Shown here: piece after piece, positions 11,995 to 18,924 of the stretch
How positions within the stretch are numbered: position 1 is the stretch's first letter
Layout: each line of letters starts with the position of its first letter
From: a virus
Taxonomy: Duplodnaviria > Heunggongvirae > Uroviricota > Caudoviricetes
IMG/VR virus record: IMGVR_UViG_2850796239_000002
DNA: 30,163 bases
Direction: 5' to 3' (one strand)
Program-made: the position numbers and the translations under genes
The notes under the pieces: model-generated
Seen by the model: only the letters and a program-made list of their open reading frames with translations
What the model was told of the DNA's origin: nothing
The model's database searches: none

Positions 11995-13470
11995 TTAAAG
12001 CTTGAACTGAATCAGGCCTGCCAGCACACGCAACTGGTTCACCAGATTCGGGTGGCAGATAAAGTTCAGGCGGTTTTTATCGCTGCTGTCGCGTGTCACC
12101 TGAAGCGTGTCCCTGTAATCGCTGAAGTTTTCCACAAGGCCCGCCGGGAGAAGTTCGGTCTGGCAGATATCCAGCAGCTCTGCAGTGCACAGCTTCGGCG
12201 TCATCACCGGCTGCCCCGCATCCAGCGAGTCCAGCACGTCATCATCCGCCAGCTTGTGGCGCGGATAACGGTTCGAGAAACGGTTTTTAATGATGTAACG
12301 GATACGGCCCAGCGTGGCGGGTGACTGCACATCAAGATACGACACATCCGCATCACCGTACTGGTTAACCCGGTACATGGTGATTTCACGCTCGATGCAG
12401 ACGTTATCCCCGGCGTCCACCATGTGCGTGGCAATGCCGTCATGCAGCAGCAGGTTACGTTCCGGCATATCCCAGCGAACATTACGCGCAGGCGGCAGAA
12501 TGCCGGTCAGGACCAGCGTCTGAAGCGGACGCGCCGGGTCAATGGCAAGGTGATACGCTGCCGTTGCGCCGTATGACGCGGCCCACATCCACGCCGGATG
12601 CGGCGACAGGTTGGTGCCGATGCAGCTAATCAGCCAGTCATTGCGGGTTTCACCAAACGTGCCGGTTTCCCCGTGCGTGCCACAAAACGCCGTCCACAGC
12701 TGCGCTTCCATCATTTTGAGCGGCCCCCAGCGGTTCAGCAGTTCATCACGCAGGGTGTTCAGGCTTTTCGTGTCGGTGAACGGGGCGATGATATCGGTAA
12801 ACCACTCCGGGCCGATGGCCGCAACGGCGTCTGCCATTTCCGGTGTCCCGGTGCCGCTGGTAAACGCGGTTGCGGTCACCTTCACACCTGCCGGGAAGGC
12901 TTCACCGGTGTGGTAGTTCAGGCGAACGTCGGCACCGTTGCCGGTGACGCCGTGCCAGTTCACGGTCAGCTCCACGGTATCCGTGGCATCATCCTTCACC
13001 GCAGCGGCCACCTGCGTGGCAGGCTTTTTCGTCACCGCATCAGCAATGGCTTTTGCAATGTTTTCCTTCGTATCCCCGGCGCTCACGCTCACCTGAACGG
13101 ACACACCGTTAATCAGCAGTGCCACCGTTCCGGCTTCGGTCGCTGTACCCAGCACGGTCAGCGTGGCTTTTGCGGCAGCGCCTTCAGGAGCGGCAACCGG
13201 CATCGCCCAGGTTTCCGTGTACGTGTTGGCACGACGCAGCATTTTGAGCATTTCAGCCAGCATCGACCCTTTGCCATAAAGCTGGTCTGCCTGGCTGTCA
13301 CTGGTGATACGGGTCAGTGACAGGGCGTCTGCGCTGCCGGACGATACCGCATGGCCCATGACCAGAATTTTTCGGCTTTGCGCGGATGCACCCTCCAGCG
13401 CCTGTGAATTGTCGATATCGATCCAGACAAGCGGGACGCGGATATCATCAGGAATGGAACCCAGCGACAT
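11995..13470 (-). CDS. Contractile tail sheath protein (Mu gp39/L-like)
   Basis: 491-aa ORF, first gene of the sheath-tube-chaperone-tape measure block. Confidence 0.7.
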   Translation of the reverse strand: MSLGSIPDDIRVPLVWIDIDNSQALEGASAQSRKILVMGHAVSSGSADALSLTRITSDSQADQLYGKGSMLAEMLKMLRRANTYTETWAMPVAAPEGAAAKATLTVLGTATEAGTVALLINGVSVQVSVSAGDTKENIAKAIADAVTKKPATQVAAAVKDDATDTVELTVNWHGVTGNGADVRLNYHTGEAFPAGVKVTATAFTSGTGTPEMADAVAAIGPEWFTDIIAPFTDTKSLNTLRDELLNRWGPLKMMEAQLWTAFCGTHGETGTFGETRNDWLISCIGTNLSPHPAWMWAASYGATAAYHLAIDPARPLQTLVLTGILPPARNVRWDMPERNLLLHDGIATHMVDAGDNVCIEREITMYRVNQYGDADVSYLDVQSPATLGRIRYIIKNRFSNRYPRHKLADDDVLDSLDAGQPVMTPKLCTAELLDICQTELLPAGLVENFSDYRDTLQVTRDSSDKNRLNFICHPNLVNQLRVLAGLIQFKL

Positions 13471-13632
13471 TATTTTTTCCCTCTGGTTTTGTTGTTATTT
13501 TTCGGAAGTGTGGTTATTTCCACATCTCCCTCGGCTTCACGGCGCAGCCAGTAAGCGCAGACGTTGAGTGAGGTAGCCTGAGTTTAACGGACACTCCTTC
13601 CTGAAATAGAATGGCATCAGAAGGAGCTAATA

Positions 13633-13935
13633 ATGAGCAGAAAAACCCAACGTTACTCTAAAGAGTTCAAAGCCGAAGCTGTCAGAACGGTTCTTGAAAA
13701 TCAACTTTCGATCAGTGAAGGCGCTTCCCGATTATCCCTTCCTGAAGGCACTTTAGGACAATGGGTTACCGCCGCCAGAAAAGGGCTCGGTACTCCTGGT
13801 TCCCGCACGGTGGCTGAACTGGAATCTGAAATTCTGCAACTGCGTAAGGCGTTAAATGAAGCTCGCCTTGAGCGAGATATATTAAAAAAAGCAACAGCGT
13901 ATTTTGCACAGGAGTCGCTGAAAAATACGCGTTAA
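13633..13935 (+). CDS. IS600 OrfA (IS3-family HTH protein, 100 aa)
   Basis: MSRKTQRYSKEFKAEAVRTV... IS3-family OrfA; slippery run AAAAAAAG at 13884..13891 near its 3' end. Confidence 0.85.
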   Translation: MSRKTQRYSKEFKAEAVRTVLENQLSISEGASRLSLPEGTLGQWVTAARKGLGTPGSRTVAELESEILQLRKALNEARLERDILKKATAYFAQESLKNTR

Positions 13936-13970
13936 TCGAACAATGGCGACAACAATTTCCCATTGAAGCG

Positions 13971-14789
13971 ATGTGTCAGGTATTTGGTGTATCCAGGAGC
14001 GGTTATTACAACTGGGTACAGCATGAACCCTCAGACAGAAAACAAAGTGATGAGCGGCTAAAACTGGAGATTAAGGTGGCACATATCCGCACTCGCGAAA
14101 CATATGGAACCCGGCGGCTCCAGACGGAGCTGGCAGAGAATGGCATCATCGTTGGTCGTGACCGACTGGCACGTCTTCGTAAGGAGCTAAGGCTACGCTG
14201 TAAGCAGAAACGCAAGTTCAGAGCGACTACGAACCCGAACCACAATCTGCCAGTTGCGCCAAATCTGCTGAACCAGACGTTCGCTCCTACAGCACCAAAT
14301 CAGGTCTGGGTGGCGGACCTGACGTATGTTGCCACACAGGAGGGATGGTTGTACCTCGCTGGCATCAAAGATGTTTATACGTGCGAAATTGTCGGCTACG
14401 CCATGGGAGAGCGCATGACAAAAGAGCTGACAGGTAAAGCCCTGTTTATGGCGCTCAGGAGCCAGCGCCCACCTGCCGGGCTAATCCACCACTCTGATCG
14501 AGGTTCACAGTACTGCGCATACGATTACCGGGTCATACAGGAGCAGTTTGGTCTGAAAACATCAATGTCGCGTAAAGGTAACTGTTACGACAACGCTCCG
14601 ATGGAAAGCTTCTGGGGAACGCTGAAAAATGAGAGCCTGAGCCACTATCGTTTTAATAACCGGGATGAAGCCATCTCAGTAATACGGGAATACATTGAGA
14701 TTTTCTACAATCGTCAGCGTCGTCACTCTCGTCTGGGGAATATCTCCCCGGCAGCCTTCAGGGAAAAATATCATCAGATGGCTGCTTAA
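13971..14789 (+). CDS. IS600 OrfB (DDE transposase catalytic domain; expressed as OrfAB fusion by programmed -1 frameshift)
   Basis: 272-aa ORF in the -1 frame relative to orfA; the frame is open back to the slippery site (...KSNSVFCTGVAEKYALIEQWRQQFPIEAMCQVFGV...). Confidence 0.85.
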   Translation: MCQVFGVSRSGYYNWVQHEPSDRKQSDERLKLEIKVAHIRTRETYGTRRLQTELAENGIIVGRDRLARLRKELRLRCKQKRKFRATTNPNHNLPVAPNLLNQTFAPTAPNQVWVADLTYVATQEGWLYLAGIKDVYTCEIVGYAMGERMTKELTGKALFMALRSQRPPAGLIHHSDRGSQYCAYDYRVIQEQFGLKTSMSRKGNCYDNAPMESFWGTLKNESLSHYRFNNRDEAISVIREYIEIFYNRQRRHSRLGNISPAAFREKYHQMAA

Positions 14790-14902
14790 AAAAAGAACAA
14801 ATGGTAGTGTCCGCTATTGCCAGTACACCTCAGAGACGTTCCTCTTCCGGGGATAAATGTGCGCCATCCGGTTTACGGACACGGACGTTTTCCCGCGCTG
14901 GC

Positions 14903-15229
14903 TTAATCAGTTTCTGTTCCATCGTCACCCCGTACATGGATCACGTCGTTAATTTCAGTGTGTTCGCCGCTGCGCAGTGTCGCCCCGAGGCGCAGGAAAT
15001 CCGGGAGCGCGGCGAGATCAATCTCTTCATCCAGCCGGAATTCCTGCTCCCACGTCACCGCCCACATGGTGACACCCAGCCCGTCGAGGCTGACGGAGTA
15101 AATGTTGTCTGCCCGCACATCAGCAGCCATGCGTTCAGCCCCCATGCCCGCTGTGGCATCCGACGACAGCAGGCGTTTGATCACCTTTCCGGCCAGCACT
15201 TCACAGCGCACGTCGCGGGAATACCCCAC
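14903..15229 (-). CDS. Hypothetical phage protein (gp38-region); may be the 3' part of a frameshifted gene or a shorter gene starting at an internal Met (~15145)
   Basis: Minus-strand ORF just upstream of the IS600 insertion; overlaps the next ORF by 49 bp in another frame. Confidence 0.3.
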   Translation of the reverse strand: MGYSRDVRCEVLAGKVIKRLLSSDATAGMGAERMAADVRADNIYSVSLDGLGVTMWAVTWEQEFRLDEEIDLAALPDFLRLGATLRSGEHTEINDVIHVRGDDGTETD

Positions 15230-15513
15230 GAATCCGTCGCCATGATGTAAGCCACCCAGGTGACCAGACCGGACAGCCCGCCGCGCGGGTTGATATCCCG
15301 GACACGCAGGGCCGCGACACGGATACAGCCGGTGCGACCGGACAGATAGCGTTTCACTTCATCCGGGCTGTTGAACTGGCCGATGTGACGCTCCACCACG
15401 TCAGCCCGGTCAGGGGTGTCCCCCTGAAGGGCCGTCTGCAGCCAGGCCACAATGTGCTCTGCGGCCGCAACGGTGCTCCCCGGTGTGCGCAGTTCAGGGC
15501 GTTGTTCTGTCAT
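15181..15513 (-). CDS. Hypothetical phage protein (gp38-region)
   Basis: 110-aa ORF with start overlapping the stop of the upstream 181-aa gene. Confidence 0.35.
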   Translation of the reverse strand: MTEQRPELRTPGSTVAAAEHIVAWLQTALQGDTPDRADVVERHIGQFNSPDEVKRYLSGRTGCIRVAALRVRDINPRGGLSGLVTWVAYIMATDSWGIPATCAVKCWPER

Positions 15514-16055
15514 GGCAGAACCTCCTTCCAGAAATGACTGATAACCTGTTGCAGCTCCTGCTGGCTGGCAGAAGACAGCCCCAGAAATTCACGTTGCGGA
15601 ATGTTCATCATGCGGTGATGTGCGCCGACGGTCTGCCAGACCGGATATTTCAGCGCCCGCCCGAAACACTGCGAGATAAGCCGTTTGTGGGCGCTGACCG
15701 GCACGCTGCCGGAAAAGCCGTCATTCATGATGCGGGCATAATCCAGCGGTGAACCGATACGCACCACGCGGTTTTCCACGATGTACTGGATACTCTCCAG
15801 CAGATGGCCTTCACCGCGCAGCAGACTCTGGTTGCCGTGGCGGGTCTTTTTGTACCCGTCAGACCAGTCCGGCCAGCGTTCGCCACCCGGACTGGTTTTC
15901 TCATCGATGATGCGGCGGCGGGTCTGTGATTCCACCACCGCACCGATGCTTTCCAGCAGCTCTGACTGCAATGAACCCTCTGCCAGCTTTTCAACGGCGC
16001 GGCGGATATCCTCCAGACGCCGGTCACCGCTGACCTGTACAGAAATCCCCATCAC
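15510..16055 (-). CDS. Virion morphogenesis / tail completion-like protein (Mu gp37-like)
   Basis: 181-aa ORF in the head-tail joining region with stop/start coupling; family assignment from memory, moderate. Confidence 0.45.
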   Translation of the reverse strand: MMGISVQVSGDRRLEDIRRAVEKLAEGSLQSELLESIGAVVESQTRRRIIDEKTSPGGERWPDWSDGYKKTRHGNQSLLRGEGHLLESIQYIVENRVVRIGSPLDYARIMNDGFSGSVPVSAHKRLISQCFGRALKYPVWQTVGAHHRMMNIPQREFLGLSSASQQELQQVISHFWKEVLP

Positions 16056-16489
16056 AGCACCCCTTTCAGGTTGTTACGGGTGAACAGCCGGGCATTGGCA
16101 CCCACCACAATAATTTTCCCGTTGTCGGTTTCTGCCGGGGTGGCATACGTCGGCAGGCCCAGGTCACGGGTGCCGTTCGCCATTTCACGCAGGGTTTTAA
16201 TGGCGTCGTCGTAGCGTTTCTGGATCAGCTCCGTGATTTGATTGTCACGCTCTGATAACCAGTAAAACGCCAGCGATACCGCCACGCGTTGCAGCGGGCG
16301 CGGGATTTCCGTCACCCCCAGCGGCAGCTGGTAGCGGCGGGACAGAAACGAATCAATTTCCGCTTCCGCATCACTGATGGCCTGACGGATTTTGTCTTCA
16401 TCCAGCCCGTTGGTTTCCCGGTTAATCGCCATGTTCCAGACAAGATTGCCGTCCGCGCGTAACAGGTCTTCCTGCGTGATGTATCCCAT
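16052..16489 (-). CDS. Mu gp36-like protein (DUF1320-type head-tail connector region protein)
   Basis: 145-aa ORF in Mu order upstream of the gp37-like gene. Confidence 0.45.
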   Translation of the reverse strand: MGYITQEDLLRADGNLVWNMAINRETNGLDEDKIRQAISDAEAEIDSFLSRRYQLPLGVTEIPRPLQRVAVSLAFYWLSERDNQITELIQKRYDDAIKTLREMANGTRDLGLPTYATPAETDNGKIIVVGANARLFTRNNLKGVL

Positions 16490-16795
16490 CAGCCTTTCTC
16501 CGCTTCCCGGACAATCAGATTCGGCTCTGCCATCAGGCGGGTGGCAACCGCAACGCTCACCGCCACATCCTCACCGATATGTGACCAGAAACGGCCACAG
16601 CGCCAGAACCCGTTTTCAGACACGGCCCTGACGTTCAGCCGGACAGGGGCGTCACCCTGTACAGCAACCGGGTCTTCAGCCGGACGTGGTTCATTCGCCT
16701 GACCGTCAGCCACAATAACGTCTGCCAGCGGTGCCGGGTTTTCCTGTGCAGCGCTGTTCTTTGCGGCTTTCGCGCCTTTGGTTTCTGCTTTTTCA
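16489..16795 (-). pseudogene. 5'-truncated phage gene (head-proximal); reading frame is open up to the IS66-family element boundary
   Basis: The frame containing 16489..16713 stays open on the minus strand through 16795 (…EKAETKGAKAAKNSAAQENPAPLADVIVADGQANEPRP…) and runs straight into the IS terminal repeat at 16796. Confidence 0.45.
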
Positions 16796-16827
16796 GTAAG
16801 CGCCCCGAGAAGTACGTAGCGTAAGGA

Positions 16828-18428
16828 TTATTTTACAGACGAGAAGTTCCAGGGCAGCAGTTCATGCACTTGGTTCGACGGCCAGTCATTGAGCTTCTCG
16901 ATCACTTCGCGCAACCAGTCCTCCGGCTCCACTTCGTTCTGTTTGCAGGTGACCAGCAGACTGTAGATGATCGCCGCACTTTCTCCTCCCTTGTCTGAGC
17001 CGAAAAAGAGATAATTTTTTCTTCCAACCGCCACCGATCGTAACGCGTTTTCACCGATGTTGTTGTCTATTTCCACCCAGCCGTCACGACAGAACTCGTT
17101 CAGCGCATTCCAGTGATTCAGGATATAGTCGAACGCCTTCGCCATCTCCGCATGTTTCGACAGCGTTTTCCTCTGCAATTGTATCCAGTCGTACAACGAC
17201 TGCATCAACTGGACGCTTCTGGCTTTTCTGACTGCAAGCCGTTCCTCTGCCGGACTGCCACGTATCTCCGCTTCTATGTCGTATAACTCTGCTATCCGTC
17301 TGAGCGCTTCCTGAGTCATTTCTGTCGGACGGCGCACATCCTCGTCATGGATTTTTCGGCGGGCGTGGGCCAGGCACCCGGCTTCCTTCACCCGGCCCGT
17401 TTCGTACAGTACGTTATAACCTGCATAGGCATCAGCCTGCAGTACGCCCTGATACTTTGCCAGGTGGAGCTGCGGATGTTCTCCTTTGCGATCTGCCGAA
17501 TACGCGAACCAGACGGCTGCCGGCAGGGATGAACCCGCATTACGATCATCCCTGACGTATACCCACAGACGACCCGTTTTCGTCTTTCCGTTCCCCGGGG
17601 CCAGTACTTTCACCGGAGTGTCATCTGCGTGCACCTTTCCTGCCTCCAGAACATAGTCATTCAGCGCTATATACAGAGGACGGAGTTTGTCTGCCATTTC
17701 TGATACCCAGCGCACCATGGTATTACGGCTCAGCTCCACGCCCTGTCGCGCGTATATTTCTGACTGGCGATATAAAGGGATATGTTCCATATATTTGCTG
17801 ACCAGGATCCGTGCAAGTAACCCTGCACTGGCATAACCGCGTTCGATCGGTTTAGGGGAAGTGGTGCCTGAACGATGACATCACACCGGCTACAGGCCAG
17901 TTTGGGACGTATGGTTTCGATAACTTTAAAGGCGGTATTAATGATATCCAGTTGCTCTGAGATTGTTTCCCCCATTTCTTTCAGAACACCTCCACAGGCC
18001 GGGCAACTGGTTTCAGCAGGCAGAAGGCGATGTGTCTCCCGGGGAAGTTCTGCCGGCAGCGGTTTTCGTGAAGATTTTCGTCCCGGGGATTCAGGCTTAC
18101 TGGCGATCGGGTTTTCTGACGGGGGACTGGTGTCAGGTGAATCTGTGACTGACGATGCATCTTCCAGAAGATTTCTGGCTGTGTTCAGCCGGTTTTCCAG
18201 TTCCGACAGTCGTTTTTCTGCCTGTCGGATCTGATTTTCAAGCTTATGACGCTTTTTCTCTGAACTCTGGCCGAACAACATACGACGCAACCTGTCGAGT
18301 TGCGCTTTCAGCCGTTCAATTTCCTGCTCATAGCCCGCGACCTGACAGGCATACTGTCGAAGCCGACTCTGTTGCTTACGCAACATGGCTTTAAGCAGCT
18401 CAATATCATCGGGGAGTTCATTGTTCAT
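16828..18428 (-). pseudogene. IS66-family transposase TnpC, split into 232-aa and 320-aa ORFs by a frameshift near 17730..17790
   Basis: Two overlapping ORFs in different frames whose combined length (~530 aa) matches IS66 TnpC; N-terminal coiled-coil plus Cys pair, C-terminal DDE-type domain. Confidence 0.65.
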
Positions 18429-18795: not shown

Positions 18796-18924
18796 CGGAT
18801 ACCCCCTTTCATTTCGCGGATTAGCGCCCGTAACAGTTCCGGAGTGAGAGGGTCAAACAGTTTTACCACACCTGATTTAAGATGCAGCTCGCACCGTGGG
18901 ACGTTTCCGGGAGCCCCCTCAGGG

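Follow-up and report, generated by a model that had tools for sequence, protein, structure and literature searches.

A Mu gp37-type tail terminator gene split by a single-base loss in one Shigella dysenteriae prophage record

Two overlapping open reading frames in the tail gene cluster of a Mu-like prophage remnant raise a simple question: are they two genes, one gene broken by an indel, or one gene read through a shift of frame? The remnant lies in the window, by which we mean the whole 30,163-nt stretch of DNA analysed, from IMG/VR virus record IMGVR_UViG_2850796239_000002. The earlier note, made from the letters of the window, had reported that ORFs 15181..15513 and 14903..15229 overlap by 49 bp in different frames, had offered a split gene and a two-gene arrangement without choosing between them, and had placed the pair in the "gp38 region". 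The ORF list bears out these coordinates exactly, with both ORFs on the minus strand and the overlap at 15181..15229. The features at issue are the following:

14903..15513, minus strand: gp37-family tail-terminator gene in the window, 611 nt long where all orthologues have 612 nt (203 aa)
15181..15513, minus strand: N-terminal fragment ORF, 110 aa, ATG start
14903..15229, minus strand: C-terminal fragment ORF, 108 aa, GTG start
15224..15227, minus strand: site of the missing base, sense G4 (CCCC on the plus strand) against G5 in all other loci

We conclude, at about 95% probability, that the two ORFs are halves of one gene, a Mu gp37 homologue, split by the loss of 1 bp. Megablast of window positions 14850..15560 against complete E. 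coli genomes returned 46 records, all of which span 712 bp where the window has 711 bp. In the two E. coli records that were opened the region is one 612-bp CDS of 203 aa, preceded by a Phage_tail_S 'virion morphogenesis' CDS and followed by a DUF2635 gene of 61 aa immediately adjoining the tail sheath gene; a single 612-bp, 203-aa ORF was also found in every Shigella and viral-contig locus fetched. Three-way alignment with E. coli VL40 and STEC383 places a single gap, in GTGGGGGT, the sense strand reading GATTCGTGGGGGTAT in the orthologues and GATTCGTGGGGTAT in the window, and the same lone gap appeared in blastn against 10 further loci. The split-gene option of the earlier note is thus the one that held, the window being 1 bp shorter than its orthologues in a G5 run.

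Translation of the two ORFs agrees with this position. The reading frame is broken after codon 97 of 203 (…DSWG): ORF 15181..15513 consists of 97 native residues, 13 out-of-frame residues (IPATCAVKCWPER) and a stop, and residues 2-108 of ORF 14903..15229 are residues 97-203 of the intact protein, its GTG 'start' falling on the frameshift site by coincidence. The missing G of the G5 run accounts for this layout: the first ORF reads 13 foreign codons to its stop, and the second carries what is left of the native frame. The first ORF covers positions 2-84 of the phrog_490 profile (E=7e-14) and the second positions 89-185 of its 190 (E=4.8e-19); because these are consecutive halves of one profile, the pairing of the ORFs is not due to chance.

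More distant relatives have the same undivided form. At identities as low as about 25%, each is one protein, 180-206 aa long, whose alignment spans both halves, and in the isolated Mu-like phages Klebsiella Kp4866-3, Vibrio martha 12B12 and Shewanella MuM16-2 the match is one unbroken piece. Two separate genes of matching sizes, the arrangement that the earlier note had named as evidence against a split gene, were found in none of more than 300 relatives. With the G restored, the window protein is identical to a protein (P0121) present in at least 152 Shigella contigs and in 248 indexed blocks, and named from S. dysenteriae and S. flexneri.

The identity of the gene was reached through its family. 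Pfam gave no match for either fragment or for the intact orthologue, which had none even at E<=1, and single-sequence phmmer against PDB returned only noise (fibritin, E=0.5). A search of 1.84 billion representative proteins yielded 297 relatives, 69 of which were aligned as a family profile; 39 of the 69 match PF08873 (Phage_Mu_Gp37). Searched against PDB, the 69-sequence profile matched 9khy_1, the Mu 'Probable tail terminator protein', over its full length (positions 6-180, E=4.5e-14), with the R-type pyocin collar PA0615 as next-best match. An AlphaFold model built on the family alignment has a pLDDT of 92.7 and a predicted C-terminal hairpin (strands E175-182 and E186-193). Its best Foldseek matches are 9khy_1 (1.4e-8), 9lj8_A, the pyocin R2 collar, T5 p142, lambda gpU and T4 gp15; TM reaches only about 0.5, which the extended form of the hairpin in the assembled structure explains in part. 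The split gene is a Mu gp37-type tail terminator, an assignment that rests on the profile and fold evidence together.

Two other names were considered and set aside. PHROG labels its family 490 'portal protein', a label copied in some phage records, yet in phages of this type the real portal is a Portal_Mu protein of 523 aa, and the profile and the fold alike lead to the terminator; the label is misleading for the Mu gp37-type terminator family. Nor is the split gene gp38, the region to which the earlier note had assigned it, since it lacks a PF10948 match and the DUF2635 gene that is gp38 comes next downstream.

The gene order around the split pair is gp36 (PF07030), Phage_tail_S, terminator, DUF2635 and sheath, with an insertion sequence inside gp38:

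16052..16489, minus strand: Mu gp36-family head-tail adaptor (PF07030, E=5.7e-31)
15510..16055, minus strand: Phage_tail_S virion-morphogenesis / tail-completion gene, the upstream neighbour (PF05069, E=6.6e-15)
14833..14922, minus strand: 5′ fragment of gp38 (DUF2635), from orthologue annotation; homology breaks at the IS end
13569..14832, plus strand: IS600 (IS3 family, 1264 bp), inserted in gp38 after 90 nt
13470..13568, minus strand: 3′ fragment of gp38 (DUF2635), collinear with VL40 to 13568 and ending at the start of the sheath gene
11995..13470, minus strand: tail sheath, the downstream neighbour (PF04984, PF17482, PF17481)

The genes are tightly packed: 4 nt are shared between the end of the Phage_tail_S gene and the start of the gp37 homologue, and 20 nt between the end of the gp37 homologue and gp38, whose ATG is at 14922..14920. 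The gp38 orthologue matches PF10948 (E=6.2e-13); a gp38 gene would be expected to encode about 61-66 aa and to lie directly upstream of the sheath gene. Over its 1264 bp the IS600 copy has 100% identity with elements annotated 'IS3-like element IS600 family transposase', its transposase ORFs match HTH_Tnp_1 and rve, and it is flanked by a 3-bp target duplication (13566..13568 and 14833..14835), the two flanks overlapping by 3 bp on the uninterrupted VL40 sequence. Since the same IS600 junctions occur in the draft assemblies of loci L008, L017 and L033, the insertion is real and common to a lineage.

The sheath is the binding partner of the terminator. In Mu, cryo-EM resolved gp37 as a hexameric ring capping the tail tube and sheath, with a C-terminal beta-hairpin that pairs with the final layer of the sheath and becomes stretched when the tail contracts, while gp38 could not be resolved (PMC11915804). 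By homology, the protein encoded here may form a similar hexameric capping ring. In the predicted model the break after residue 97 parts strands 62-92 from helix 100-115, from the later strands and from the sheath-binding hairpin 175-193, and on this structure neither fragment would be expected to function.

The split is private to one record. Exact-sequence look-ups placed the 110-aa and 93-aa products (the latter from 15184..14903) that the NCBI gene caller made from the two pieces in the window's own record only (CP026875.1, GCA_002950355.1, S. dysenteriae). Exact-pattern scans of genome, metagenome and viral contig collections gave 0 matches for the G4 allele and found the G5 allele in 10 viral contigs. 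A regex count over the 27 fetched loci containing the site found G5 in 25 of them; G4 occurred only in the window and in L003 and L018, both excerpts of the record to which the window belongs. Most informative are the nearest relatives: L008 (AERN01000091.1) shares the IS600 insertion and the IS66 truncation with the window, yet has an intact 203-aa gene, and L033, a draft contig of 2,071 bp whose ends are the IS600 and IS66 termini seen in the window, differs from window positions 14780..16849 by this base only, with 0 substitutions.

What, then, removed the base? It was probably not lost in the bacterium at all: we consider the missing G a likely homopolymer undercall in the assembly consensus. 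Private differences were counted between the window's record and its nearest relatives (L008, L017, L030 and L033) over about 22.5 kb. Four 1-bp deletions, each in a G/C run of 5-6, are the only indels that set the record apart from these:

~5702: private 1-bp deletion, splits baseplate J
15227: private 1-bp deletion, splits the tail terminator
~17858: private 1-bp deletion, splits the IS66 transposase
~19453: private 1-bp deletion, in an IS4-family element

Over the same ~22.5 kb there were 3 substitutions and no insertions. G/C runs of at least 4 make up only 2.4% of the compared bases, and of the 108 A/T runs of at least 5 in the window none is affected. Single-base deletions of this kind in G/C runs have the look of homopolymer undercalling in a long-read consensus. 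The same class of deletion occurs at other G/C runs in two Shigella records with neighbouring accessions, CP026836.1 (L006) and CP026824.1 (L007), where it fragments sheath, tape-measure and transposase genes; CP026824 alone has 13 such deletions in about 10 kb of the same prophage. This suggests a batch-wide consensus problem, and the neighbouring-accession assemblies presumably come from one platform and submitter, although a literature search on CP026875.1 and its neighbours found no publication on the assembly. Given this pattern in the record, other apparent frameshifts in the window are suspect, for example those in baseplate J at ~5702 and in the IS66 transposase at ~17858.

The baseplate J gene (Mu gp47-like) shows a comparable split, into ORFs 4916..5680 and 5392..5991 on the minus strand, by the 1-bp deletion in a G6 run at ~5702. 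The near-identical draft L017 has an intact 358-aa baseplate J, and a single substitution is the only other difference over 9.4 kb. The prophage remnant ends with a gene for the Mom DNA modification protein, at positions 1..738 on the minus strand (PF25680, E=2.7e-75); a small com gene called in the identical draft L030 is absent from the calls of this record.

One observation tempers the claim of an artefact without overturning it: an adjacent 8.2-kb stretch of the record (its leftward extension) matches a short-read draft at 100% identity, which shows that the quality of the assembly is not poor throughout. In addition, IS copies contain two of the four private deletions, and at such places the draft assemblies may themselves carry a collapsed consensus.

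The competing explanation, which we consider unlikely but by no means negligible, is that the G4 is real, a recent replication-slippage deletion that inactivated the terminator in this strain only, as further decay of a dead prophage. G5 runs are natural slippage sites, a frameshift in a defective prophage would meet no counter-selection, and the clean 8.2-kb stretch shows no assembly discrepancy. Some other differences in the region are clearly genuine, for example the 4-bp loss of a CAGT repeat unit at ~1897, by comparison with E. coli VL40, in a gene of the tail-fibre region; because the independent draft L030 (100% identical) shares it, this deletion is a true property of the lineage, not a fault of the assembly. 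The prophage was also already defective, with IS600 in gp38, homology that stops at 16795, and head and early genes absent. Against a real deletion, neither any other assembly nor the read-derived Logan assemblies contain the allele, dense defects of like kind are found in the neighbouring-accession assemblies, and a ratio of 4 G/C-run deletions to 3 substitutions, with no insertions and nothing in A/T runs, is unusual for true divergence.

The state of the prophage is clear under either explanation. Intact prophages are homologous as far as 16795, a point within a 103-aa gene upstream of gp36 of which a 74-aa stub (16489..16713) remains, and the sequence then passes into mobile elements:

16796..~20857: IS66-family element, truncating the Mu-like prophage
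18911..20238 and 26858..28164: an IS4-family element in two copies, the inverted ends 33 nt long

The IS66 transposase is divided into pieces of 232 and 320 aa by the 1-bp deletion in a G5 run at ~17858, and is intact at 533 aa in L008. The IS4-family copy at 18911..20238 is nested in the IS66 element and has its 1-bp deletion in a C6 run at ~19453; the copy at 26858..28164 encodes an intact 407-aa transposase. Beyond the IS66 element we found no head, packaging or early genes, and type VI secretion (T6SS) genes instead. With no head or early genes and with gp38 interrupted, the prophage was already non-viable whatever explains the missing G. The T6SS island occupies 20855..25997, and the prophage remnant sits inside the T6SS cluster, with TssM/IcmF just to the left of the window (L029). 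Within it, comparison with E. coli G3X16-2 shows vgrG (23505..26018) broken into three, 1-bp deletions falling at ~25232, ~25719 and ~25785.

The title of the earlier note also mentioned a possible additional frameshift. A programmed −1 ribosomal frameshift or transcriptional slippage within the 49-nt overlap, fusing the ORFs or giving two products, has a very small chance of being right. Phage tail clusters do have one conserved programmed frameshift, in the tail assembly chaperone, and a −1 shift just after the GGT codon would restore the orthologous …SWGYSRD exactly. Against recoding, all orthologues have G5 and one ORF and none needs a shift: the undivided layout is that of the 46 E. coli records, of every Shigella locus and of 10 viral contigs, and the split one is confined to a single record. 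A scripted search found no X_XXY_YYZ heptamer, either in frame across the first ORF or, to a distance of about 40 nt from the overlap, in any frame at all, and a G4 run is far too short for transcriptional slippage.

Two genuinely separate genes are just as improbable. The second would begin at GTG 15184, as in the NCBI annotation of 110-aa and 93-aa products, which is what speaks for this reading, or at the internal Met near 15145 that the earlier note had proposed, which is ATG 15145, residue 29 of ORF 14903..15229. Set against this, the two pieces align to successive halves of a single profile, all relatives are undivided proteins of about 200 aa, and no two-gene orthologue was found among more than 300 relatives. 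The prediction, moreover, is of one compact fold, in which separate genes would part the central helix 100-115 and later strands from strands 62-92.

It is scarcely credible, finally, that the G4 is genuine and that the G run in the terminator serves as an on/off (phase-variable) switch of a head-less tail cluster domesticated as a tailocin-like module: the tail gene cluster is well preserved from adaptor to tail fibres, lies within the T6SS locus and has identical proteins in many Shigella contigs, but we rejected phase variation on finding G5 in all other isolates, and a G5 run is too short for it.

The broken tail terminator is therefore an ordinary, known gene, and its split is a one-base defect of one record, with little biological weight; if not an artefact, it would otherwise be a trivial private pseudogenising mutation in a dead prophage. 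The locus is better annotated as a single gp37-type tail terminator (pseudo)gene than as two hypothetical proteins or as gp38.

Several known systems place the locus. It is like the homopolymer undercalls of long-read-only bacterial assemblies in that private single-base deletions in G/C runs give apparently frameshifted genes, and unlike them in the error-free 8.2-kb stretch adjoining it, the platform here being assumed. With the −1 frameshift of the tail assembly chaperone (lambda gpG/gpGT) it shares two overlapping same-strand ORFs in a tail cluster; the lambda-type frameshift is conserved and has a slippery sequence, whereas the split in the window has neither and affects a different gene. 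The intact Shigella/E. coli allele (P0121; e.g. WP_235387397.1, STEC383) gives a direct comparison: the repaired window protein is 100% identical in amino acids to P0121 and 97-99% identical to E. coli alleles, with the same neighbours, and the window differs from the P0121-type allele in having G4 rather than G5 at 15224..15227.

Mu gp37 itself (the gene K product; PF08873; PDB 9khy / 9lj8) is also among the closest known systems. The window copy differs from it in being broken after codon 97, with no intact ORF, and the subfamily differs in having only about 16% identity to it in structural alignment and no direct Pfam match; an extra Phage_tail_S gene also stands between gp36 and the terminator in this phage, unlike in Mu. 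In other respects the two agree: Mu gp37 is matched over its full length by the family profile and is the best structural match of the predicted fold, the lengths are similar (203 aa here against 182 aa in Mu), and in both phages the gene follows that of the gp36 adaptor and precedes gp38 (DUF2635) and the sheath gene.
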